From Candidatus Latescibacterota bacterium (lineage in GTDB: Bacteria > Latescibacterota > UBA2968 > UBA8231): DNA of 64,000 bases. The DNA lies in assembly GCA_965248355.1 (NCBI GenBank), contig OZ252098.1, positions 5,280,001 to 5,344,000 on the forward strand, written 5' to 3'. This document shows positions 1-12,622 of this stretch, in pieces. The position numbers and the translations under genes are program-made. Every line of letters starts with the position of its first letter. Position 1 is the stretch's first letter. The notes beneath the pieces are model-generated. The model did not search any database. It saw only the letters and a list, made by a program, of their open reading frames with translations, and had not been told where the DNA came from.

Positions 1-2517
1 ACCCTCGAGCAGCTGGCCGCGGCGATCCGGAGCGCCAACCGCAACATGTCGGGCGGCTCCATCGTCGAGATGGGCCGCCGCTACCTGATCCGGGGCGTGG
101 GGGAGTTCTCCTCGGCGGCCGACCTCGAGGCCCTCGTGGTCGCCCAGGTCTCGGGGCCGGCGGCGGGACCGCAGGGGGCTGGCCCTCAGGCGCAGGAGGC
201 CCCCGAGCCGAAGCCCGTCTTCCTGCGCGACCTGGCCGAGGTGCGCCAGGTCCTGAGCGAGCCCCGGAGCATCGTGCGCCTCGACGGCCGCCGCTGCCTC
301 GGCCTGGAGATCTACAAGGAGGCCCGCTTCAACACCCTCGACGCGGCCCGGGCCGTGCACGACCAGCTGGAGTCGCTGCGCCGGAGCCTGCCGGGCTACG
401 AGATCGAGGTGATCCAGGACCAGTCGCGGTTCATCGCCGCGGCCGTCTCCGAGGTGGAGGAGACCGGCCTCATCGGGGTGCTGCTGGCGGTGGTCGTGCT
501 CTTCGTCTTCCTGCGCCGGGTGGGGGTGACGGCGGTGATCAGCCTGGCGATCCCGATCTCGGTGGTGGCCACCTTCAACCTGATGTACTTCGGCGAGCTG
601 AGCCTGAACCTCATGACCCTGGGCGGTCTCGCCCTCGGCGCCGGCATGCTCGTTGACAACGCCATCGTGGTGGTGGAGAACGTCTTCCGCCACCTGGAGC
701 AGGGCGAGTCCCCGTCGCGGGCGGCGATCCGGGGCGCCGGCGAGGTGGGGGGCGCGATCACCAGCGCCACCCTGACCACCATCGTCGTCTTCCTGCCCAT
801 CGTCTACCTCCAGGGCGCGGCCGGGGAGCTGTTCCGGGAGCAGGCCTGGACCGTGGCCTTCTCGCTGCTGTCGTCGCTGTTCGTCGCCCTCCTCGTCATC
901 CCCATGCTGTGCTCCCGGCTCCTCGGCGACGGCGGCGGCGCCCCGCCGGCCGGCCGGGTTCCCTTCCCGCGCTACGGGGCCCTGCTGACGGCCCTGCTGC
1001 GCCGCCGGGTGGCGGTGGCGCTGACGGCCGCGGCCCTGGTGGCGGCCACGGCCGCCGTCCTGTCCCGCCTGGGCAGCGAGTTCATGCCCCACCTCGACCC
1101 CGGGCAGCTGTCCCTGCGCCTGACCCTGCCCGAGGGCACCACCCTGGCCCGCACGGAGGGGGCGGTGGGCAACGTGGAGGCGTCGATCGCGCAGTCCCTC
1201 GGCCCGGAGCTGGGGCACCTCTACTCCCGCGTCGGCCGGACGGCCGGCGCCGGGGGGGGCGAGTCCCTGGCCGGCGAGAACCACGCCGTGATCCACGTGC
1301 AGCTCCGCCCGGGCAGCCCGGTCTCCCCGGCGGCGCTGGCCCAGGCCCTGGGCGAGGCCCCGGCCGGGCCCGACGCGCAGGTCCGCTACCTGCTGCGGGA
1401 GACGGCCCTGGAGACCAGTCTAGGGCGCTCGGACGCGCCGGTGGTGGTGGAGATCCACGGCCGGGCCCTCGGGGTGCTGGCCGGCCTGGCGGGGCAGGTG
1501 GAGGAGCGGCTGGCCGCGGTCGAGGGGCTCACCGGCGTGGAGTCGAGCCTGGGGCCCGGCCGGCCGGAGATCGAGATCGTGGTGGACCGCGCCGCGGCGG
1601 CCGTCTTCGGCCTGAGCAGCGACGCCGTCGGCTCGCAGCTGGAGGGCCTGCTCTCCGGACAGGAGGCCGGCCGCCTGCGGCAGCGGGGGGAGGCCGCCGA
1701 CATCGTCATCCGGCGGCCCCGGGTGACCCCGGCGGAGCTGCGCGGCCTGCTGCTGGAGGCGCCCGGGGGGCGGCGGGTGCGCCTCGACGAGGTGGCCCGG
1801 CTGCGGGACACCGTGACGCCCCGGGAGATCCTGCGCCGCAACCAGCAACGGGTGGTCACGGTGAGCGCCCGCCTCGATGGGGAGGAGCCCTTCGACCGGG
1901 TCGCCGGGCGCGTCGACGAGGCCCTCCGGCAGGTGGACCGGCCGCCGGAGTACGGCTTCGTCCTCACCGGCGAGGAGAAGCTGCGCCGGGACTCGTTCGA
2001 CAACCTGCGCTTCGCCCTGGTGCTGGCGGTGGTCCTCGTCTACATGGTGATGGCCGCCCAGTTCGAGTCCCTCGTGCACCCCTTCGTCATCCTCCTGACC
2101 ATCCCCCTGGCCGGGGTCGGCGCCGTGGCCCTGCTCCTGGCCCTCGGCATGCCCCTCAACGTGATGTCCTTCATCGGCGTCATCCTGCTGGCCGGGATCG
2201 CCGTCAACGACTCCATCGTGCTCGTGGACCGCATCAACCGCAACCGCCGGGCCGGGCAGGATCTCGAGGCGGCCATCGTGCACGCCGGCCGGACGCGCCT
2301 GCGGCCGATCCTGATGACGAGCCTGACCACCATGCTCGCCCTGCTGCCCCTGGCCGCCGGCGCCGGCGAGGGCGCCATGCTGCGGGCGCCCATGGCGGTG
2401 GCCGTCATCGGCGGCCTGTTCAGCTCCACGGCCCTCACCCTGGTCGTGGTCCCCTGCGTCTACCACCTCCTGGCCCGCATCGACCGGCTCCGTCCGGCGC
2501 AGGCCCCGGCGCCGTGA
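1..2517 (+). CDS. AcrB/MdtB-type RND efflux permease subunit (5' partial)
   Basis: Frame open from base 1. RND motifs GMLVDNAIVVVEN (TM4), YMVMAAQFES, GIAVNDSIVLVD, RLRPILMT, PMAVAVIGGL. Confidence 0.95.
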   Translation, partial: TLEQLAAAIRSANRNMSGGSIVEMGRRYLIRGVGEFSSAADLEALVVAQVSGPAAGPQGAGPQAQEAPEPKPVFLRDLAEVRQVLSEPRSIVRLDGRRCLGLEIYKEARFNTLDAARAVHDQLESLRRSLPGYEIEVIQDQSRFIAAAVSEVEETGLIGVLLAVVVLFVFLRRVGVTAVISLAIPISVVATFNLMYFGELSLNLMTLGGLALGAGMLVDNAIVVVENVFRHLEQGESPSRAAIRGAGEVGGAITSATLTTIVVFLPIVYLQGAAGELFREQAWTVAFSLLSSLFVALLVIPMLCSRLLGDGGGAPPAGRVPFPRYGALLTALLRRRVAVALTAAALVAATAAVLSRLGSEFMPHLDPGQLSLRLTLPEGTTLARTEGAVGNVEASIAQSLGPELGHLYSRVGRTAGAGGGESLAGENHAVIHVQLRPGSPVSPAALAQALGEAPAGPDAQVRYLLRETALETSLGRSDAPVVVEIHGRALGVLAGLAGQVEERLAAVEGLTGVESSLGPGRPEIEIVVDRAAAAVFGLSSDAVGSQLEGLLSGQEAGRLRQRGEAADIVIRRPRVTPAELRGLLLEAPGGRRVRLDEVARLRDTVTPREILRRNQQRVVTVSARLDGEEPFDRVAGRVDEALRQVDRPPEYGFVLTGEEKLRRDSFDNLRFALVLAVVLVYMVMAAQFESLVHPFVILLTIPLAGVGAVALLLALGMPLNVMSFIGVILLAGIAVNDSIVLVDRINRNRRAGQDLEAAIVHAGRTRLRPILMTSLTTMLALLPLAAGAGEGAMLRAPMAVAVIGGLFSSTALTLVVVPCVYHLLARIDRLRPAQAPAP

Positions 2518-5500
2518 CCGGCGCCCTGGTCCGGCGGCCCGTGGCGGTGACCATGCTGCTGGCCGCCGGCTGCCTGCTGGGGGCCGTCTCCTACGGGCGT
2601 CTGCCCGTGGAGCTGATCCCCTTCGCCGAGCTGCCCATGCTCGTGGTGCAGGTGCAGGGGGGGCGCGACTCGGAGCCGGAGCAGGTCGAGAGCCGGGCCG
2701 TCATCCCCCTCGAAGGGGCGATCGCGGGACTGCCCGGGATCGAGCGGATCGAGTCCTACGTCGAGTCGCGGGGGGCCCGGATCCTGGTCTACTACAGCAG
2801 CCGCGTCGACCCCGGGCACGCCTACCTGCGCCTGGAGCAGCGGGTGACGGCGGCGGCGGCCGGCCTCGACGAGGAGATCGGCGTGCGGGTGCTCAAGGTC
2901 GACACGGAGCAGCTGTCGACGCAGTTCATGTCCCTCGAGGCGCGCGGCGAGGGCGGCCTCGACCGGATCCGGCACGTGGTCGACCGCAAGGTGGTGGAGG
3001 AGCTGAGGCACGTGGACGGCGTCGCCAACGTCTCCGTGTACGGGGGCCGGCGGCGCTCGATCGAGGTGCGCCTCGACGAGGAGGTCCTGGCCGGCCACGG
3101 ACTCACGGTGGCGCAGGTGGGGGCCCAGGTCGCCCAGGGCTCCCGTCGCCGGCGTCATCTCGGCGAGGTGGCCGACGGCGGCGGACGGCTCTTCGTCAGC
3201 CTGGTCTCCGACTACACCTCCATGGCCGACCTCGAGGAGACCGTCCTGCGGGACGGGTTGCGCCTGGGGCACGTGGCGTCGGTGGTCGACGGGGGGGCGG
3301 AGCGCCAGACCATCGCCCGCGTGAACGGCCAGGAAGCGGTGGCCCTGTCCCTGATGCGCGACCCCGAGGCCAACCTGCTGGAGCTGTCGGAGGCCGCCGC
3401 GGCCGTGGTGGAGGACCTGAACCGGCAGCTGGCCCCGGAGGGCGTGGAGCTGGTGGTCCGCAGCGACGCCGCCGAGCCGGTGCGCGAGAACATCGGGGAC
3501 ATCCAGTCCCTGGCCCTGCTCGGCGGGGGGCTGGCGGTGGCCGTGCTCTGGGTCTTCCTGCGCAACCTGGTCCTGGTGGCCGTGGTGGCCCTGTCGATCC
3601 CGGTGTCGGTGCTGATCTCCCTGAACCTGTTCCACGCCCTGGACCTCACCCTCAACTCCCTGTCCCTGGTGGGCATGGCCGTGGCCGTGGGCATGCTCAT
3701 CGACAACAGCATCGTCGTCCTGGAGAGCATCTACCGGCGGCTGGCCCGGGGCGAGGCGCCGGACGAGGCCGTGACCGGGGGCGTGGCCGACGTGCGCCGC
3801 GCCGTGGTGGCGGCGACCCTGACCACGGTCTGCGTCTTCCTGCCCTTCGTCTTCGCCGAGGGCTACCTGATCCGCCTCCTGGGGCGCGAGGTGGGCGTGG
3901 CCATCATCTCGACGCTGCTCGTCTCCCTGGCCGTGGCCCTGCTGCTGATCCCCGTGGTCACCTGGCGCCTCGCGGTGCGCCGGTCCGGGGCAGGGCTCGC
4001 CTTCAACGCCGTCTCCCAGCGCCAGCGGGCGGTGCAGGTCTACTCGCTGCTGCTCAAGTCGTGCCTGCGCTTCCCGGCGCGCACCGTCATCGCCGCCGTG
4101 GCCGGCTTCTTCCTCACCGTGGCCGTCTGCCTGGCCCTCAGCATCGACCGCTCGCGCCCGGTGGAGCTGGACCGCTTCGACGTGTACGCGGGGCTGCCGG
4201 GCGGGGCCACCCTCGAGCTGGCCGACGAGCTGGCCCTGGCCATGGACGCGCGCCTGGCGAGGGTGGAGGAGCTGGAGGAGCGCCGCATCGCCGTGCGGCC
4301 CGATCTCCTGCACCTCGACCTGGGTCTGCGCGAGGACTTCCGGGAGATCGCCGGCCGCGGCGTGGGCGAGGTGCGGGAGGAGGTGCGCCAGGAGCTGAGG
4401 GAGGCCTTTCCGGCCCTGTGGTTCACCTTCGACGCGCCCCGGGGCGGCGCCGGGTTTCGCGGCGGCGGCGGTGGAGGAGGGGGCGGCATGGGCGGGGCCT
4501 TCGGCCGGCTGCTGGGGATCGGGGAGAGCGGCGATCGCCTCCTCCTCCGGGGCCGGGACATGGGGCTCCTGCGCCGGGTGGCCGACGACCTGCGCTACAA
4601 CCTCGAGCGCCTGACGGCGGTCCAGTACGCCAGGGTGGCCGAGGCCGAGCGCCAGCCGGAGATCTCCCTGTTCCTCGACCGGGCCGCCCTCAAGCACCAC
4701 GGCGTCACCGAGGAGGCCGTCTCCGGGGAGCTGGCCAGCTTCCAGCCGCAGGTGTCGTCGCCGGCGCGGGTGCGGCGGGGCGCGGAGGAGCTGGAGGTCC
4801 TGCTGCGCAGCGGTGAGCCGGGGGACCGCCGCATCGAGGACCTGCGGCGGGTGCAGGTGCCGGCCGAGGGGGGAGGATCGGTGCCCCTGCCGCGGCTGGC
4901 GGACCTCGTGTACACCAGCGGCAGCGGGCGCATCGCGCGCGTCAATCAGGAGAAGGAGCTGGCGGTCAGCTACCGGTTCCAGAGCGAGGTGAGCAGCTCG
5001 GCGGGACTGCTGGCCGAGGGGCGGTCCGCCGTCGACCAGCTGGTCTCGGACCTGTCCCCGCCGTCGGGGGTGTCGGTCGAGGTCGTCCGCGACGAGACCG
5101 ACCTGGAGCCCTTCTACTTCCTCCTCGCCGCCTCGGTGGTGCTCATCTACATGATCCTGGCCGCGGTCTTCGAGTCCCTCGTGGCGCCCCTGGCGATGAT
5201 GATCACCCTGCCCCTGGCCACGGTGGGGGGGCTCTGGGCGCTGGTCCTCACGGGCCACTCCATCCTCGACACCAACGCCCTCGTGGGCTTCGTGATCCTC
5301 CTGGGGGTGGTGGTCAACAACGGCATCATGCTCATCGACTCGGCCCGCGCCCGGCAGCGCCGCGGGGCGCGTCTCTCCCGGGCCCTGCTGCAGGCCGGCC
5401 AGGGCCGCCTGCGGCCGATCGCGATCACCGCCCTGAGCACGATCCTGGCGCTGCTGCCCCTGGCCATGGGCAAGGCCGAGTACGTGGCCGTCATCGGCGT

Positions 5501-7199
5501 GCCCTTCGCCGTGGCCGTCATCGGCGGCCTGCTGGCGGGGACCCTCTTCACCCTGGTCCTGGTGCCCACGGTCTACGCCGGCCTGGAGCACACCCTGGCC
5601 TGGCTGCGCGGCCTCGGCGGCTGGACCCGGGCGGCGCAGCTGGCGGCGCTGGCCCTGGGGGCCTGGCTGATCCAGGAGCAGGTGGACGGCCTCCTGTGGC
5701 GGGTCGTCGACGGCACGGTGCTGCTGGGCGGGGTCCCGGCCCTGACCTGGTTCCTGCAGACCAGCCTGCGGCGCAGCCGCGCCGACCCGATCCCCCGCGA
5801 CCGGCCCCTGCGCATCTCGGTGGCCAACCTGGTGAAGGTCTACGACGACGAGCCGCGGTTCCTGCGCCAGTGGCGCCGGGGGGAGCGGCAGCGGGCGCGC
5901 CTGCGCGCGGCGGGGGAGGCGGAGGCGGTGGGCCGCCTGGGGGCCCTGCGCTGGCAGCTGCCGCTGCTCGGCTTCCACTTCTACTTCGCCTACCTCTACC
6001 TGGAGAGCGACTTCTGGGCGATGGTGTTCTCGGTGGCCTTTGTCCTCTTCCTGGCCGGCGCCGTGCGCCCCTTCCTGCCGCCGCCGCAGGGCCGCCGGCG
6101 ACGCCTCGTCCGCGGGCTCTGGTCGACCCTGTTCTGGCTGCTGCCCCTGCCCCACCTGCTCTGGTACCAGGACCGCTGGGACAACTGGGCGCTCACCGTC
6201 CTCGTGGGCATCCTCTGGTACCTCGGGGCCGTGGTGCACCGCGGTGCCCGCCGGCTCTACCGCGGCCAGGTCAACGTCGACGGTCTGGCCGGACGCTTCC
6301 GGCGCAGCCGCCGCCTGCTCTACCGGCTCGTGGCCTGGCTGCCGCTCATCGGCCGCCGCCGCCGGCCCTTCCCGGCCCTGAAGCAGGCCTCCCTCGAGAT
6401 CGAGAGCGGCATGTTCGGACTCATCGGGCCCAACGGCGCCGGCAAGACCACGCTCATGCGCGTCCTCTGCGGCATCCTGGAGCCGACGCGGGGCAAGGTG
6501 CGGGTCAACGGCATCGACCTGTCGGCCCGGCGCGAGGAGCTGCAGGCCCTGATCGGCTACCTGCCCCAGGCCTTCGGCACCTACGAGAACCTGACGGCGT
6601 ACCGGTTCCTCGACTACCAGGCGATGCTGAAGGGCCGGTGGGACGCCGGAGAGCGGCGCCGGGCCGTGGAAGAGGCGATCCGCGCCGTGCACCTGGAGGA
6701 CAGCCGCGATCGCAGGATCGGGGGGTTCTCGGGGGGGATGAAGCAGCGGGTGGGGATCGCCCAGACCCTGCTGCACCTGCCCCGCATCCTGGTGGTCGAC
6801 GAGCCGACGGCGGGCCTCGACCCGAGGGAGCGCATCCGCTTCCGCAACCTGCTCGCCGAGCTGGCCCGCGACCGGGTGGTGGTGTTCTCGACCCACATCA
6901 TCGAGGACATCTCCAGCTCCTGCAACCGGCTGGCCGTGCTCGGCGATGGCGAGGTCCGGTTCCTCGGGACCCCCCGGGAGATGGTGGAGCTGACCCGCGG
7001 GGCCGTGTGGCAGGCGTCGGTCCCCGAGGCCGGCTTCGAGGCCCTGCGCCGGACGGCGCGGATCGTGCACCACATGCGCGACCAGGACCGCATCCGCGTG
7101 CGCCTGCTCGCCGCCGAGCGGCCCCTGCCCGGGGCCGCCGAGGTCACGCCGACCCTGGAGGACTCCTACCTGTGGCTGCTGGAGGGCCGCGAGAGGTGA
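2514..7199 (+). CDS. RND permease fused to C-terminal ABC ATPase (~1561 aa)
   Basis: GTG overlaps the upstream TGA (GTGA). Full RND body (RRPVAV, GMLIDNSIVVLES, RLRPIAIT), then extra TM helices and an NBD with GPNGAGKTT, FSGGMKQR, VVDEPT, STH. No stop between the two parts. Confidence 0.92.
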   Translation: MTGALVRRPVAVTMLLAAGCLLGAVSYGRLPVELIPFAELPMLVVQVQGGRDSEPEQVESRAVIPLEGAIAGLPGIERIESYVESRGARILVYYSSRVDPGHAYLRLEQRVTAAAAGLDEEIGVRVLKVDTEQLSTQFMSLEARGEGGLDRIRHVVDRKVVEELRHVDGVANVSVYGGRRRSIEVRLDEEVLAGHGLTVAQVGAQVAQGSRRRRHLGEVADGGGRLFVSLVSDYTSMADLEETVLRDGLRLGHVASVVDGGAERQTIARVNGQEAVALSLMRDPEANLLELSEAAAAVVEDLNRQLAPEGVELVVRSDAAEPVRENIGDIQSLALLGGGLAVAVLWVFLRNLVLVAVVALSIPVSVLISLNLFHALDLTLNSLSLVGMAVAVGMLIDNSIVVLESIYRRLARGEAPDEAVTGGVADVRRAVVAATLTTVCVFLPFVFAEGYLIRLLGREVGVAIISTLLVSLAVALLLIPVVTWRLAVRRSGAGLAFNAVSQRQRAVQVYSLLLKSCLRFPARTVIAAVAGFFLTVAVCLALSIDRSRPVELDRFDVYAGLPGGATLELADELALAMDARLARVEELEERRIAVRPDLLHLDLGLREDFREIAGRGVGEVREEVRQELREAFPALWFTFDAPRGGAGFRGGGGGGGGGMGGAFGRLLGIGESGDRLLLRGRDMGLLRRVADDLRYNLERLTAVQYARVAEAERQPEISLFLDRAALKHHGVTEEAVSGELASFQPQVSSPARVRRGAEELEVLLRSGEPGDRRIEDLRRVQVPAEGGGSVPLPRLADLVYTSGSGRIARVNQEKELAVSYRFQSEVSSSAGLLAEGRSAVDQLVSDLSPPSGVSVEVVRDETDLEPFYFLLAASVVLIYMILAAVFESLVAPLAMMITLPLATVGGLWALVLTGHSILDTNALVGFVILLGVVVNNGIMLIDSARARQRRGARLSRALLQAGQGRLRPIAITALSTILALLPLAMGKAEYVAVIGVPFAVAVIGGLLAGTLFTLVLVPTVYAGLEHTLAWLRGLGGWTRAAQLAALALGAWLIQEQVDGLLWRVVDGTVLLGGVPALTWFLQTSLRRSRADPIPRDRPLRISVANLVKVYDDEPRFLRQWRRGERQRARLRAAGEAEAVGRLGALRWQLPLLGFHFYFAYLYLESDFWAMVFSVAFVLFLAGAVRPFLPPPQGRRRRLVRGLWSTLFWLLPLPHLLWYQDRWDNWALTVLVGILWYLGAVVHRGARRLYRGQVNVDGLAGRFRRSRRLLYRLVAWLPLIGRRRRPFPALKQASLEIESGMFGLIGPNGAGKTTLMRVLCGILEPTRGKVRVNGIDLSARREELQALIGYLPQAFGTYENLTAYRFLDYQAMLKGRWDAGERRRAVEEAIRAVHLEDSRDRRIGGFSGGMKQRVGIAQTLLHLPRILVVDEPTAGLDPRERIRFRNLLAELARDRVVVFSTHIIEDISSSCNRLAVLGDGEVRFLGTPREMVELTRGAVWQASVPEAGFEALRRTARIVHHMRDQDRIRVRLLAAERPLPGAAEVTPTLEDSYLWLLEGRER

Positions 7200-7900
7200 A
7201 GGGGCCTCTCGGCAGCGCCCCCGCCTTCCTGCGCTACAGCGCCGGGCAGGTCTTCGCCGGCCGGTTCCCCTGGTTCCTGCTGCTGGCCGTGGCCCTGTTC
7301 CTCACCATCGCCGTCATATACACGGCCTCCGAGAAGGTGCCGCCGGGCCCCGATCTCATCTACTACTTCCTGCTGGCGCCCGGGGTGGTGCTGGTGATCT
7401 ACCCCTCGGCCTACGCCGTGCAGAGCGAGGTCGACGCCGGCATGGTGGAAACCCTCTTCGGGATCCCGGACTACCGCTACAAGGTGTGGCTGGCGCGGCA
7501 CGCCGTGCAGCTGCTGACCGCGGCCGTCCTGCTGGCCGGGCTGGCCTCGTTCTGCCGCCTCGCCCTCACCGACTTCGCCGTCCACGAGATGGTCTTCCAC
7601 CTCATGTTCCCGGTGGCCTTCCTCTCCAGCGCCGGCTTCCTGCTGGCCACCCTCACGCGCGGCGGCAACGGCGCCCTGGCCGTGCTCGTGCTGGTCGTGC
7701 TCGCTCTGTGGATCGCCGCCGAGCCCCTCGAGGGCAGCCGCTGGAACCCGTTCTACAACCCCTTCGCGCTGCTCGACGAGGTGGAGGGCCTGGTGCGCTC
7801 GGGGACCACCTTCCACAACCGCGCCTACCTGCTCTCCGGGTCGGTCCTGGCCGTCCTCGGAGGCCTGCTGCGCCTGCAGCACCGCGAGCGCTTCGTCTGA
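7196..7900 (+). CDS. ABC-2-type membrane permease-like protein (234 aa)
   Basis: GTG overlaps the upstream TGA. About 6 hydrophobic segments; SEVDAGMVETLF resembles the ABC-2 'E...G..E.L' motif; follows the ATPase. Confidence 0.75.
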   Translation: MKGPLGSAPAFLRYSAGQVFAGRFPWFLLLAVALFLTIAVIYTASEKVPPGPDLIYYFLLAPGVVLVIYPSAYAVQSEVDAGMVETLFGIPDYRYKVWLARHAVQLLTAAVLLAGLASFCRLALTDFAVHEMVFHLMFPVAFLSSAGFLLATLTRGGNGALAVLVLVVLALWIAAEPLEGSRWNPFYNPFALLDEVEGLVRSGTTFHNRAYLLSGSVLAVLGGLLRLQHRERFV

Positions 7901-7913
7901 CCCGGCTCCGCGG

Positions 7914-8750
7914 TCAGACGGCCATGTCGGCGCGGATGGCGGGGTGGCTCCGGTAGCCTTCCAGCTCGAAGTCGTCGAAGACGAAGTCGTCGATCTCGCC
8001 CTGGCCGCGGTCGCGGAGCCGCAGGCGCGGCAGCGGCAGGGGCTCGCGGCGGAGCTGCTCGCGCACGGCGTCGAGGTGGTTCAGGTAGATGTGGCAGTCG
8101 CCGAGGGTGTGGATGAACTCGTGGGCCACGAAGCCGGTGACGCGGGCCACCATGTGCAGCAGCAGGGAGTAGGAGGCGATGTTGAGGGGCACGCCGAGGA
8201 ACATGTCGCAGGAGCGCTGGTACATCTGCAGGGAGAGGCGGTCCCCGGCGGTGTAGAACTGGAAGAAGTTGTGGCACGGCGGCAGGGCCACGTCGGCGGG
8301 ACCGGTCTCGGCGGCGTTCCAGGCGTCCACCATGATCCGCCTCGAGCCGGGGTCCGTGCGCAGCAGGTCGACGGCCTCCTGCAGCTGGTCCACGGTGCGG
8401 TCCGCCCCCCGCCAGCGGCGCCACTGCACCCCGTAGATGCGGCCCATGGCGCCGTCGTTCTCCTCCACGCCGAGGCGGGAGAGGTAGTCGCGGTAGTTGG
8501 CGTCCCAGAGCTTGTTGTGGGGGTAGATCGCCTTGAGGTCGTGGATGTTGTCGGACCCCGAGACGAACCACAGCAGCTCCGACAGCATCGACTTCCACAC
8601 CAGCCTCTTGGTGGTGACCGCGGGGAAGCCGTCGGCCATGGCGTAGCGCGCCTGCATGCCGAAGAGGGAGAGGGTGCCCACGCCGGTGCGGTCAGCCTTC
8701 TCCACGCCGTGGTCGAGGATGCGCTGCAGCTGGTCGAGGCAGGTCTGCAT
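7914..8750 (-). CDS. thyA: Thymidylate synthase
   Basis: DRTGVGT, TTKRL, IYGVQWR, ALPPCH (catalytic Cys), YQRSCDMFLGVPLN, GDCHIYLNH. Confidence 0.98.
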   Translation of the reverse strand: MQTCLDQLQRILDHGVEKADRTGVGTLSLFGMQARYAMADGFPAVTTKRLVWKSMLSELLWFVSGSDNIHDLKAIYPHNKLWDANYRDYLSRLGVEENDGAMGRIYGVQWRRWRGADRTVDQLQEAVDLLRTDPGSRRIMVDAWNAAETGPADVALPPCHNFFQFYTAGDRLSLQMYQRSCDMFLGVPLNIASYSLLLHMVARVTGFVAHEFIHTLGDCHIYLNHLDAVREQLRREPLPLPRLRLRDRGQGEIDDFVFDDFELEGYRSHPAIRADMAV

Positions 8751-8910
8751 CAGGGATCCTGGCGGCGCAACTCGGCGCCCGGTTGCGTGTTTCGCCGTGC
8801 GATCCGCTCGAGCTGCGGTTGGATGGCCGACATGACCGCGGCGAAGACGACCGCCACCTGCACGGACCGCCAGATCACGTCGGCTGCCGCGGACAGCCGC
8901 GTGGGGCTCG
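8750..8910 (-). pseudogene. 3' remnant of a membrane-protein gene formerly coupled to thyA
   Basis: Frame ...LSAAADVIWRSVQVAVVFAAVMSAIQPQLERIARRNTQPGAELRRQDP* ends in a TGA overlapping the thyA ATG (TGATG). No clear start before the accessory DNA begins. Confidence 0.4.
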
Positions 8911-8911
8911 G

Positions 8912-9112
8912 CTATTGGGCATGGTCCGCAATCATCGCTCGTACCACGGGTGCCAGCTCTCTGGGGACCGCGATTGCTGCCTGAGCAGAGTCCTCGAATG
9001 CGGCCTCGTCTTCTGCAACTGCCTCGTCTTCGCTCAGCGACTCGTAGTGCCGGAGTACGCGCTGGACACGTTCCTCGTTCCATCCAGGCGGGAACTTGGT
9101 GGCATTCTTCAT
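8912..9112 (-). CDS. Small conserved hypothetical protein, antitoxin-like (66 aa)
   Basis: KFPPGWNEERVQRVLRHYESLSEDEAVAEDEAA...VPRELAPVVR resembles small proteins usually found as the second gene of toxin-antitoxin-like pairs. Confidence 0.65.
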   Translation of the reverse strand: MKNATKFPPGWNEERVQRVLRHYESLSEDEAVAEDEAAFEDSAQAAIAVPRELAPVVRAMIADHAQ

Positions 9113-9162
9113 CGGCTGTGCTCATCGTGAGTCGTCGGGGGTCGGAACATGGAAGTGCCGGA

Positions 9163-9846
9163 TCAATGTATTCTGCGTTCAAGAACGATTCTCAAACCTA
9201 TGAAATCCGCTTCGACGCGTACGTTGAAGCGCTTCGAGAGGCGATTCCTCACTCCAAGCCCAATGCGGTAGAACTCCGGACCGGAATTGTTGTCATCGCG
9301 GGCACTGAGCCTCCAGCCGGGACCCAGGCCCAAGAGTAGATAGGTCCTGGGAATGGCCGTATAGAAGTGGGCATTGACAACTATTCCAATCCACCGGTAG
9401 TGTCCACCCGCTCCTGCAGCAACACTCCCCTCTATTGAATTCAGATAGCTTCGATACCGGAGAGAGATCCCCGCACCTTCCAAACGTCTCTCGATGGGCA
9501 GTTCCTGCGGCCGGCCTTCCAGGGCCAGGAATGTACCCGCTGACAAGCCCACATACACGCGCTCCTTGGCCGGTCGCCTGACGCTATGGATCCATCGGTA
9601 GGGGATGTCAAGGACGCCCAGTCTCCGCACATCCAACCTGACCGAATCCTCATCCCCACTGAGAACGATACCTCTTCTGGTTCTGACGATCCCTGCCCTG
9701 TCCTGATAGGTGATCCACACCTGGTCGCGCTCTTCGAACAGGTTCTGCCCGATCCCGCTCTCGCGGGTGGCTGCGACCTCCGTCAGGGGCGCCGCACATC
9801 CAGCAGCAAGAAGCGCCGCGGCGGTGAGAGACCGGAGCTGGTTCAC
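9163..9846 (-). CDS. Putative lipoprotein with amphipathic beta-rich C-terminus (227 aa)
   Basis: GTG overlaps the stop of the hsdR ORF. Lipobox LLAAGC; alternating hydrophobic strands in the C-terminal half. Confidence 0.6.
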
Positions 9847-12622
9847 GGACTCTGGGGCTTCTTCCTGGAATTCACGGTTCGGGGGTGGGGCCGCCTGCCC
9901 ACGTCGTACTTCCTCCAACCGGGCACGTGGAGGGTCATCAGCGTTTTGAACAGCTTTCCGTGGTTGGGCACGCGCAGGTGCAGCAGTTCGTGGGCGATGA
10001 CGAAGTCCCGGAACGCCGGCTCCTGGTCGGCCAGGTCGATGGCGAGAGTGACGATGCCGGCCGTGGAGCAGGAACCCCACTTTCGGATGATGGCATCCAC
10101 GACCCGCCCCCGTTCATCCCGCTCGACACCGAGTAGAGGTCGGTAGAGAGAGGCCCGCAACCGCCGCTGCTCGTCGGGGTTCAGAGCCGCATTCGGGAAC
10201 CGGGCGAGCAGCGTTTCCGCCTCCTGCGCCAGCTCGGAGGCGGAGATACCCGCGGCCTTGAGCGCCCTATCGTCCTTGAGAGTCCAGTAGACGCCGAAGG
10301 CTCGGGGAGCCAGGCCGCTCTCCCTCGCCGCCCTGGCCGCCTCTTCTTTCTCCTCCGCCAACGTCGACAACTGGTCCAGGGCCACGAGGCTGGTACTGTT
10401 GCGGTTCTCGAGATCCTCGAGGATATGCTCGGCGCGCTCCCTCAGGGGTCGAAGCAAAGCTGCCGAGTCCGGGTCGCTGTCGATCTCGGCCCGCAGGCCC
10501 CGCACGAGGTTGAAGATCTTGGCCTCGTCGGAGCCCGGATCGCCTCGCAGGACTTCGATGGTGTCCACGTCGAAGGTCACCGTCCTCACCAAATCGCCAA
10601 GGCTGCCCTGGATGACTCTGTCCTGCACCAGGTCGTGCGTCTTGCGGCCGAGGGCGGCCTCGTAACGGACCGGCCCTTCGTAGGCGTTGCGGAGGACGGT
10701 GTACAGCTCGGCCAGCCGCTTGAAGATGTCCACGTGGCCGCGCAGCTCCGGCGAGGGGGACAGGATCTCCCAAAGCGCCTCGATCTCCTTGTAGGCTTCG
10801 AAGAAATCCTTGCGCGACTCCGGCGTGAGGAAGCGGCCGTAGACAAGCCTCTCCAGGCGCTCGTCCTCGCCGCCGCGCCCCTCGTCGTCAAGAAACTCCG
10901 ACCTCGCCCGCTCGATCTTGTCCAGGTACATGCAGTAAAGCAGCGGCGCGTCGTAGCCGGTCAGGAGCTTATCCGTGACGATCAGGATCTTCGGCTCCTC
11001 CCCGGTCTTCTTGAAGGTGAGGCGCACGTCCGCCTCGCGTTCCGGCGAGAGCTGCAACTCGGCGACGAGGGGCCGGTCCACGACATCGGCGGCGTTCTCG
11101 GTGTACACGGCTTCCGACCACTCGGCCGGCAGCAACCTGTCCAGGGCGCGCTTGTACTTGGCGCAAGCCTCGCGGTTCACCCCCACGAGGAAGGCCTTGT
11201 ACCCCAGGGGCAGCACGTTTTCCCGGAAGTGTTGCGCCACGTAGCTCGCCACTTTCTCGATGCGTTCATCGGCCGTAAGGAAGGTGCGCAGGCCCACGGC
11301 CCGGTCGAGGACTCTGTTCAATTGGTCAACATCGGTCACGTCTTCGGCCTCTGCCAGCTCGAAGAACTCCCTGTCGAGCCGCTCGACCGGCACCGTCATC
11401 TCGCTCGGCGCCATGGTATGGCGGAGAGGCAGGGTGGTCTCGTCCTCGATCGATTCCCGAATCGAGTACTTGTCGAGATAGCCCCGCTCGTCGTCGACGC
11501 CGAAGATCTTGAAGGTCCCTTCGCCCTGGGCGGTTCGGGCCACCGGGGTGCCGGTGAAGCCGATGATGGTCGCATTTGGCACGGCCGCCATCATGTATGT
11601 GCCAAGATCCCTGGCCACCGAGCGGTGCGCTTCGTCGATGAAGAGGTAGATGTTGCCGCGGGTGTTCGCATCGCGGTCGATCCCCTCGAACTTGTGGATC
11701 ATGGAGAGGATCAGACCGCGCTTGTCGGTCCGGAGCAGCTCCTGCACCTCGTCCCTGGACCGAGCCCGCCAGACCGGGATCTCCTGTTGCTGCATCTCGC
11801 CCAAGAGCCTCTCCACCCAGCCCTTGAGCTGACCCTCCAGCTCGATCCGGTCGACAACGAGGAGGACGGTGGCGTTCTCGAAGCGCTGCTTGTCTTCCAG
11901 GATCAGGCGCGCGGCGGTCAGCAGGGTGAAGGTCTTGCCCGACCCCTGGGTGTGCCAGATCAACCCGCGTGTCTTCGCCCGGTCCTGGCAGCGCTCGACG
12001 ACCTTGCCGATGGCGATGCGCTGGTGCTGGCGCAACACGGACTTCCGGGTCTCGCCGTCCTCGACGTAGAAGAGGATCCAGCGCTCGAGGGTGCGCAGGA
12101 AGTCCGTTGGCTCGAAGAAGGTCTGAACGGCGAACCTGTAGCTCTCCTCGGGCTCCTCCTTCCACCGTGCCATGAAGCGCCGGGTAGCGTTCCAGGTCAC
12201 GCCGTACCAGTACTCCAGCAGATGGGTCACGTTGAAGAGCTGAGGCGCGGCGATCAGCTCGACGTGCAGGCTGTTGGCGGCGGGGCGCTCGAAGTCCACA
12301 AGCCGGACGCGCCGGTTGCGCTCCTCGGCCTCGTCGTACACCTGCCGCTCGCCGCGCAGCCAGGCGAGCACCTCGCGGTTGCCTTCGATGGAGGGAGGGA
12401 TCGCCTCGAGCCGCTCGATGACCTGGCGTACGGCAATCTCGCTCATCCAGGGGTTTAGCTGGGCCAGCTCGCTCCGAGGTCGTCGCGGAACAGCATCCCG
12501 GCGGCGCTGCCCCGCTTGCGCATCGCCTGCTGCGGGGAGATGGCAGTCCAACCGATCTCGGCCGCGTGCTGAACCATGGGGAATTGGATCGACCCTGCTT
12601 CGGTGATCTGCAGATCGGTCAT
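9843..12622 (-). pseudogene. hsdR: Type I restriction enzyme R subunit, frameshifted and internally deleted, fused to the C-terminus of a YgjP/M48 metallopeptidase
   Basis: HsdR-like N-terminus ([17 protein letters not shown]) lies in another frame, shift ~12470. [12 protein letters not shown] and GFTGTP present; nuclease motif and helicase motif VI absent. Ends in KWGSCS...[11 protein letters not shown]. Confidence 0.88.

Follow-up and report, generated by a model that had tools for sequence, protein, structure and literature searches.

Textbook tripartite pumps of the bacterial envelope have as inner-membrane driver either a resistance-nodulation-division (RND) permease, fuelled by protons, or an ATP-binding cassette (ABC) transporter, fuelled by ATP, and RND pumps are thought to take their substrates only from the periplasm or the outer leaflet, with separate transporters doing the cytoplasmic step. 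What, then, is to be made of a locus in which the two kinds of driver are encoded as one polypeptide? The locus lies at the beginning of the window, i.e. the whole stretch of 64,000 nucleotides that was analysed (positions 5,280,001 to 5,344,000 of the forward strand of contig OZ252098.1, assembly GCA_965248355.1, Candidatus Latescibacterota bacterium), and its central gene encodes an RND permease, RND2, that continues in frame into an ABC ATPase. We find that this RND::ATPase fusion is real and conserved, and we suggest that it may be one component of a composite exporter of the cell envelope. The three genes of the locus are as follows.

1..2517, plus strand, 5'-open: C-terminal 838 of the 1036 residues of RND1, an AcrB-type RND permease (ACR_tran)
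2514..7199, plus strand: RND2::linker::ABC ATPase, a single open reading frame (ORF) of 1561 amino acids (ACR_tran and ABC_tran)
7196..7900, plus strand: small putative ABC-2 type permease of 234 amino acids, with six predicted transmembrane (TM) helices and an N-terminal interface helix

An earlier note on this DNA had described three genes coupled by GTGA overlaps, and such overlaps are present at 2514-2517, where the GTG start of RND2::ATPase lies on the stop codon of RND1, and at 7196-7199, where the GTG start of the small permease lies on the stop codon of gene 2. Its tandem RND subunits hold in so far as both are AcrB-type; the window begins inside the first gene, which in full extends over genome positions 5279407-5282517 and starts 593 bases upstream. 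RND1 matches the Pfam model ACR_tran over residues 5-1022 of the full protein (E 1.4e-220, 735.2 bits; E 1.1e-180 for the part inside the window), and gene 2 matches ACR_tran in two stretches, the best over residues 5-587 (E 3.4e-151, 505.5 bits against a cut-off of 28), followed by ABC_tran at residues 1289-1433 (E 2.4e-29, 103.1 bits against a cut-off of 25). Thus, both RND proteins score above the gathering threshold of PF00873, which models a permease of 12 TM helices and two periplasmic loops.

The G+C content is 71-78% in this region and 73% in the genome, and chance ORFs of up to 2096 codons occur on both strands, the longest overlapping the first two genes. Because long ORFs are cheap at 73% G+C, the open frame alone is weak proof of a fusion, and gene 2 could be two genes read through by assembly error, frameshift or scarcity of stop codons. 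Several observations speak against such an artefact: (i) assembled contigs from the runs of three studies cross the junction (5300-6190 or 5300-6450) with 0, 4 and 10 substitutions and zero indels, such that the frameshift between ~5580 and ~6400 that the earlier note had named as fatal to its proposal finds no support in them, and their only breaks are at the Walker A codons, a site at which words common to many organisms pile up, (ii) of the 37 loci in which a linker can be detected, 36 encode RND core, linker and ATPase as a single ORF, and this single ORF is kept down to 40% identity and in low-G+C Bacteroidota, which also disposes of a one-off fusion with homologues encoded as separate genes, (iii) the linker is conserved and has invariant residues, and (iv) in the phylum of the window organism open frames of at least 857 amino acids contain 61 of the 63 linker matches listed, each matching genome contributing one. 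In total, we give the artefact practically no chance of being correct. Short metatranscriptome contigs from one library fall on 5600-5794, 5858-6032 and 6498-6700; these may be carry-over of DNA and are not counted as expression. Locus L027 is the exception among the 37, with the ATPase in a 402-codon frame separate from the RND core, as a result of either a frameshift or a genuine split.

Homologues were collected in three ways. A word-indexed search with the linker and ATPase as query, limited to proteins of 858-2732 residues, gave 3889 matches at E ≤ 1e-3 among 7999 scored; PF00873 and PF00005 occur together in all 120 matches listed, most of which are 1541-1621 residues long and whose source names include Gemmatimonadota, Zixibacteria, Latescibacteria and Aminicenantes. 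An exhaustive search of representatives at 50% identity listed 24 proteins of 1550-1601 residues that match the entire linker and ATPase, and eight of 1389-1451 residues that match in the ATPase only, at about residue 1150; we refer to the latter as class II. Finally, scanning a single genome for each species yielded 63 loci, of which 38 match across RND and ATPase at 36-60% identity, cultured Bacteroidota included. Three listed proteins of 367-539 residues (P0152, P0153 and P0189) stand alone, with a Met start and at least two hydrophobic helices ahead of a closely related ATPase, and possibly represent unfused relatives of the fused ATPase that have a membrane anchor; others listed resemble gene fragments.

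The linker of about 250 residues is predicted to be more than a spacer. An AlphaFold2 model of linker and ATPase, built from an alignment of 35 sequences (mean predicted local distance difference test score, pLDDT, 82.7), places two plus four TM helices in it, such that the fused ATPase would be anchored in the membrane by six helices in addition to those of the RND core. The elements of gene 2 from the RND core to the ATPase core, all on the plus strand, are the following, with residues of this model in brackets.

2514..5603: RND2 core, residues 1-1030, AcrB-like, 12 TM helices
5619..5774: predicted TM13 and TM14, residues 1036-1056 and 1060-1087 (model helices 7-27 and 31-58), after TM12 of the RND core
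5808..5843: predicted beta1 strand of the ATPase, detached from its core, LRISVANLVKVY, cytoplasmic (model strand 72-81)
5856..6338: predicted insertion between beta1 and beta2 of the ATPase
5856-5909: cytoplasmic helix in the insertion (model helix 86-103)
5922-5999, 6009-6074, 6093-6179 and 6186-6263: four predicted TM helices in the insertion (model 108-133, 137-158, 165-193 and 196-221)
6300-6338: amphipathic helix in the insertion (model helix 234-246)
6369..7196: core of the ABC ATPase (ABC-2 subfamily, DrrA/GldA-like by Pfam and NCBIfam), including a C-terminal accessory domain

Given that solved nucleotide-binding domains (NBDs) beginning with residue 1-2 of their own chain can be aligned to the model from its residue 68-72 onward through the core, the strand at 5808-5843 is likely the ATPase's own beta1, and the four TM helices would therefore form an insertion inside the ATPase fold, a feature that the earlier note had missed. 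MJ0796, for instance, aligns with its residues 1-230 to model residues 71-459 (Z 26.1, 218 aligned residues) and skips about 171 residues of the model. The canonical contiguous beta1-beta2 hairpin is accordingly absent from the predicted structure, in which beta1 (72-81) and beta2 (257-267) are ~175 residues apart. The detached strand reads 'ISVANLVKVY', its K and Y are invariant in the 35-sequence alignment, and its pattern matches that of beta1 in the free paralogous ATPase encoded upstream (MRIEIQGLTKRY; the free paralogue starts with 'IEIQGLTKRY'). TM13 and TM14 are conserved across the same 35 sequences. The predicted topology of 12 plus 6 helices with a cytoplasmic ATPase is self-consistent: every segment rich in Arg/Lys is predicted to be cytoplasmic and none occurs in the three short loops on the outside, which fits the positive-inside rule. 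In class II the four helices are absent, yet an insert of ~50 residues sits at the same site between beta1 and beta2. Searching the model of linker plus ATPase with Foldseek and VIA-align was uninformative for the linker, as the ATPase dominates the matches and those to ABCA have a root-mean-square deviation of about 20 Å.

The ATPase core has the complete set of ABC motifs, all on the plus strand.

6426-6452: Walker A
6561-6578: Q-loop
6726-6749: signature
6789-6821: Walker B with the catalytic Glu
6885-6902: H-loop

All five motifs are found in 38 of 38 fused orthologues, and the proposal of an RND permease running in frame into an NBD with intact motifs is thereby borne out. By family models the ATPase matches drrA (E 2.2e-48) and GldA (E 3.4e-46), both under the curated cut-offs; its best structural match is TM_1403 (4yer_B, Z 27.4), and Foldseek also matches it to NosF (E 2.0e-15).

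Which permease does the fused ATPase serve? The small permease is encoded directly downstream in 35 of the 37 loci, and the remaining two reach the contig end. It has itself no Pfam or NCBIfam match, and among its orthologues ABC2_membrane_4 is matched in 4 of 32 and ABC2_membrane_3 in 2 of 32, with a best E of 4.9e-6. Its model (pLDDT 86.5) has 6 TM helices and no periplasmic domain, and Foldseek matches to it are nearly all TM domains of ABC-2 transporters (PmtCD, CcmB, ABCG2, NosY, TarG, KpsM) at TMq values of about 0.45-0.65, the first five of these being the top matches at about 0.5-0.6; the best E is only 4.1e-3, at a TMq of 0.62. In agreement with the earlier note, which had called it an ABC-2 permease, the predicted structure resembles the ABC-2 (type V) permease fold. 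Docking of this permease on the fused ATPase is predicted with an ipSAE of 0.64 (0.64, 0.64 and 0.65 in separate runs) versus 0.02 for the best control; 116 of 157 solved complexes attain the mark used, as do 2 of 215 mismatched pairs, a calibration that is only rough since the docking alignments were self-made. The runs agree in at least 81% of contacts with a partner pLDDT of at least 75. In the predicted interface, the Q-loop and helical subdomain of the ATPase face the N-terminal helix of the permease and a loop with the invariant residues E85/G89/I90/P91/Y93/K96, i.e. the classical coupling interface of such transporters.

The idea that the fused ATPase and one permease make up the whole ABC-2 transporter holds for the predicted docking and not for the number of parts, given that the operon encodes two ATPases and two different permeases. 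The window contains the last three genes of an operon of seven, which share one strand, overlap or lie ≤10 bases apart, and follow the order free ABC ATPase, large ABC-2 permease, outer-membrane factor, adaptor, RND1, RND2::ATPase and small permease; its 3' end is at 7900. Looking upstream of the window, as the earlier note had advised, thus finds the membrane fusion protein-type adaptor and the outer-membrane factor (OEP domain) and, in addition, a second ATPase and the large permease. The free ATPase is DrrA/GldA-like and has 296 amino acids. The adaptor matches RND_mfp (180.3 bits against a cut-off of 94.9) and carries near its N-terminus 'LLGGGC', which we take to be a lipobox-like sequence and a cue for a lipoprotein. 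The large permease (1118 amino acids) has about six N-terminal TM helices with a weak match to ABC2_membrane_2 (E 0.0019) and an ectodomain of ~850 residues ending in a Golvesin_C domain (E 5.1e-11). Neither an HExxH nor a GxMEN motif nor a Peptidase_M1 match was found in this protein, and we judge its ectodomain to be non-catalytic. It resembles Atlas clusters named "ABC transporter permease/M1 family aminopeptidase" with scores of 0.87-0.88, which serve as leads only. A profile comparison of the small permease with the N-terminal part of the large one, in which one side was a single sequence, detected no paralogy (probability 0.1).

The gene order is conserved. All seven parts are colinear in 27 of the 37 related loci (Gemmatimonadota, Bacteroidota, Calditrichota), the parts that are present are in the expected order in all 37, and 9 of the 10 incomplete loci stop at a contig or locus end; locus L026 has no free ATPase upstream of the large permease despite a 2 kb flank. 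The tandem overlapping RND pair is kept in 33 of the 37 loci. In the phylum of the window organism 63 of 168 genomes have the linker, as do 24 of the 52 that are of high quality, and 59 of the 63 also encode the large permease, usually about 10 kb off on the same contig; the remaining four are 58-86% complete. In the phylum of genome G168 (locus L016, the record of which names a Parabacteroides), the linker is found in 4 of 401 evenly sampled genomes. The system is thus widespread but sparse, and its carriers among cultured organisms in the records include Marivirga tractuosa, Draconibacterium mangrovi, Prolixibacter bellariivorans and Parabacteroides massiliensis.

The class II locus L053, at 28% identity, likewise encodes all seven kinds of part, arranged differently: adaptor, ABC ATPase, 283-amino acid ABC-2 permease, RND1, 919-amino acid ABC-2 permease that includes a Peptidase_M1-like region, RND2::ATPase (1438 amino acids) and outer-membrane factor. 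The neighbours are swapped, the free ATPase being beside the small permease and the fused ATPase after the large one, which weakens a simple pairing of the fused ATPase with the small permease only. That the parts list is kept with its order shuffled argues that the seven proteins work together, and it bears on an alternative in which two or three independent transporters are merely co-expressed or co-localised. In this alternative, the fusion would serve stoichiometry or placement and no substrate would pass between the ABC and RND parts; the ABC part might, for example, flip a different envelope molecule. The large-permease-like families have their own ATPase elsewhere (several matches per genome; the Atlas clusters being leads only), and complete catalytic motifs in both ATPases make homodimers possible, both of which would suit independent transporters. 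Such independence is hard to sustain given that the covalent fusion is kept across at least four phyla named in the records and in two classes with shuffled order and the same seven parts, and we regard it as rather unlikely.

The fusion could also act on the RND subunit directly: the ATPase would drive or gate it by means of the membrane-inserted linker helices, ATP would replace or supplement the proton motive force, and the ABC-2 permeases would be accessory. The residues to consider are Asp407 and Asp408 in TM4, Lys940 in TM10 and Arg971 in TM11, which we take to be the proton-relay residues in AcrB numbering. In RND2 the corresponding sites are as follows, all on the plus strand.

3690-3728: TM4 motif
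5304-5342: TM10 motif
5403-5429: conserved Arg of TM11

Based on an alignment to MdtB and to 33 RND1 and 35 RND2 orthologues, the equivalents of Asp408 and Lys940 that characterize the HAE-1 pumps (AcrB/MdtB/MexB) are replaced by Asn in both paralogues: Asp408 in 32 of 33 RND1 and 32 of 35 RND2 orthologues, and Lys940 in 32 of 33 and 35 of 35, respectively (RND1 itself has 'DN' in TM4 and 'ND' in TM10). These replacements would favor an ATP-driven RND subunit, as would the six conserved helices predicted to wire the ATPase into the membrane beside RND TM12 and the position of the class II ATPase about 50 residues from TM12. On the other hand, the equivalents of Asp407 and Arg971 are invariant in all of these orthologues, the operon never comes without ABC-2 permeases, one of which the fused ATPase is predicted to engage classically, and unfused RND paralogues of the same genome carry the identical 'DN'/'NN' motifs. 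We therefore rejected loss of the relay as a hallmark of the fusion; because the unfused genes match, the change is a trait of the subfamily and not a consequence of gaining an ATPase, and an RND subunit driven by the ATPase is in our view distinctly improbable. Two more tandem RND gene pairs of this genome, at 4346917-4353215 and 5451894-5458720, are all 'DN'/'NN', and heteromeric RND pumps may be common in this organism. A Gly-rich loop in the periplasmic part of RND2, GGGGGGGGG (residues 644-661; 4443-4496, plus strand), has a Gly run that is kept in the consensus of 30 fused homologues.

Combining these data, we suggest that the operon encodes a composite exporter of the cell envelope in which one RND subunit of a heteromeric tripartite duct carries a tethered ABC-2 module driven by ATP, and we put the chances of this proposal at about even. 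In this model, (i) RND1 and RND2 would form a mixed trimer, in line with the heteromeric RND of the earlier note and with two tandem paralogues encoded with one adaptor, (ii) this trimer would assemble with the adaptor and the outer-membrane factor into a normal tripartite duct, (iii) the linker would hold the ABC-2 (type V) module against the RND trimer, (iv) the ABC module would export an amphipathic or lipid-linked substrate from the cytoplasm or the inner leaflet, and (v) the RND part would collect this substrate from the outer leaflet or the periplasm and expel it through the outer membrane. Two arrangements of the ABC parts account for the data about equally well. In arrangement A, the free and the fused ATPase together with the large and the small permease would form one heterodimeric ABC module on an RND1(2)RND2(1) trimer, an arrangement that is favored by the swapped neighbours in class II and by symmetry. 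Alternatively, in arrangement B there would be two separate homodimeric ABC modules, which is allowed by the independent occurrence of large-permease relatives and by the fully canonical motifs of both ATPases. Taking arrangement A further, the operon may encode one machine that spends ATP and possibly also the proton gradient, in which a heterodimeric ABC-2 flippase sits on the RND1(2)RND2(1) trimer by way of the six-helix linker and offers a continuous protein-enclosed path across both membranes; here the clash between three-fold and two-fold symmetry would be solved by one fused subunit per trimer. We put forward this single machine only tentatively, as a possibility.

Several points weigh against the composite exporter. 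It is proposed from sequence and predicted structure, and the hand-off of substrate from ABC to RND is conjectural. RND2 remains below the NCBIfam whole-protein cut-offs, with 442 against 1250, far under, for NF033617 (RND_permease_2) and 266.8 against 1584 for NF007798 (MdtB-MuxB), and since both RND paralogues lack the canonical Asp408 and Lys940, it would be unsafe to take proton coupling for granted. The pass in docking may partly reflect likeness to solved NBD-TM domain complexes, a paralogous ATPase could score equally, and the linker helices lie outside the confident predicted interface. Moreover, genomes carry several copies of large-permease relatives at sites apart from the fusion, such that this permease and its ATPase may work alone.

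The surroundings of the operon give no clue to the substrate. Just upstream of it, in locus L001, genes for a GNAT/FemAB-like acetyltransferase (6365-7324, plus strand) and an NAD-dependent epimerase/dehydratase (7349-8479, plus strand) have no counterpart in the other loci, and because the neighbourhood is not conserved they are uninformative in this respect. Further upstream, on the other strand, are genes for a class-III aminotransferase, a GHL10 glycosyl-hydrolase-like protein and a sulfatase, a neighbourhood suggestive of glycan modification. Downstream, a thymidylate synthase gene (7914-8750, minus strand; Pfam E 2.4e-98) is convergent with the operon, its stop codon 13 bases past that of the small permease. 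Across ~8500-12600 of the window the G+C content falls from about 0.71 to 0.60-0.65, and this region, possibly a defence island, encodes a 902-amino acid protein like the R subunit of type I restriction enzymes (9846-12551, minus strand; SWI2_SNF2, ResIII, HSDR_N) that ends in a C-terminal YgjP-like metallopeptidase domain.

The full-text literature, with most subscription journals outside the coverage, yielded no account of a natural RND-ABC fusion or of its seven-gene operon, and the statement of the earlier note that it knew of no functional characterisation agrees with this search. A dicumarol-induced seven-gene 'ABC-type pump' of Bacteroides uniformis (PMC12694919) was considered and rejected as a match; the annotated products examined include an HlyD adaptor, a transport permease and an ABC-2 transporter and no RND protein, which points to a different system. 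New here are the predicted split ATPase with its four-helix membrane insert, the comparison of parts lists with class II and the control of the relay motif within one genome. A conserved protein that joins RND and ABC would be a natural test case for cooperation between pump classes; with RND::ATPase one could also ask in what way an ATPase that works as a dimer is fitted to a trimeric pump, and which role is played by an ATPase domain inserted in the membrane. As the operon is present in cultured, tractable organisms, it is directly testable.

The system shares traits with several known ones. Like MdtABC-TolC and MuxABC, the operon combines a tandem pair of RND paralogues with a single adaptor gene, whose product exceeds the RND_mfp cut-off, and among solved structures MdtB is closest to RND2 by sequence (9lyq_B, E 1.2e-72, aligned over 5-538 and 760-1032); in E. 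coli the stoichiometry of the heteromeric pump is MdtB2C. To our knowledge no pump of this type carries an ATPase, whereas here one RND paralogue is fused to one, the equivalents of Asp408 and Lys940 are Asn, and the operon adds its own OEP protein and four ABC parts. The clusters in which an ABC-2 permease is joined to an M1-aminopeptidase-like ectodomain share with the large permease an N-terminal multi-TM part and an ectodomain of ~850 amino acids; in contrast to them, the large permease has no HExxH/GxMEN motifs or Peptidase_M1 match and ends in Golvesin_C. Like MacAB-TolC, the system would span the envelope and combine ATP hydrolysis with an adaptor and an outer-membrane factor, and the MacB NBD aligns to the fused ATPase with a Z of 25.6. 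MacB has its NBD first, followed by 4 TM helices and a periplasmic domain; here the NBD is C-terminal to the RND core, the small permease has 6 predicted TM helices and no periplasmic domain, both permeases are probably of ABC-2 type, and a full RND pair is present. Finally, the ABC parts resemble PmtCD, NosFY, CcmAB, TarGH and KpsMT (and DrrAB and GldAFG by family models) in the ATPase subfamily, in the predicted 6-TM fold of the small permease and in the coupling-loop interface; whereas all solved NBDs that aligned are contiguous from their own residue 1-2, the ATPase described here is covalently joined to an RND pump and, as predicted, split between beta1 and beta2 by four membrane helices.

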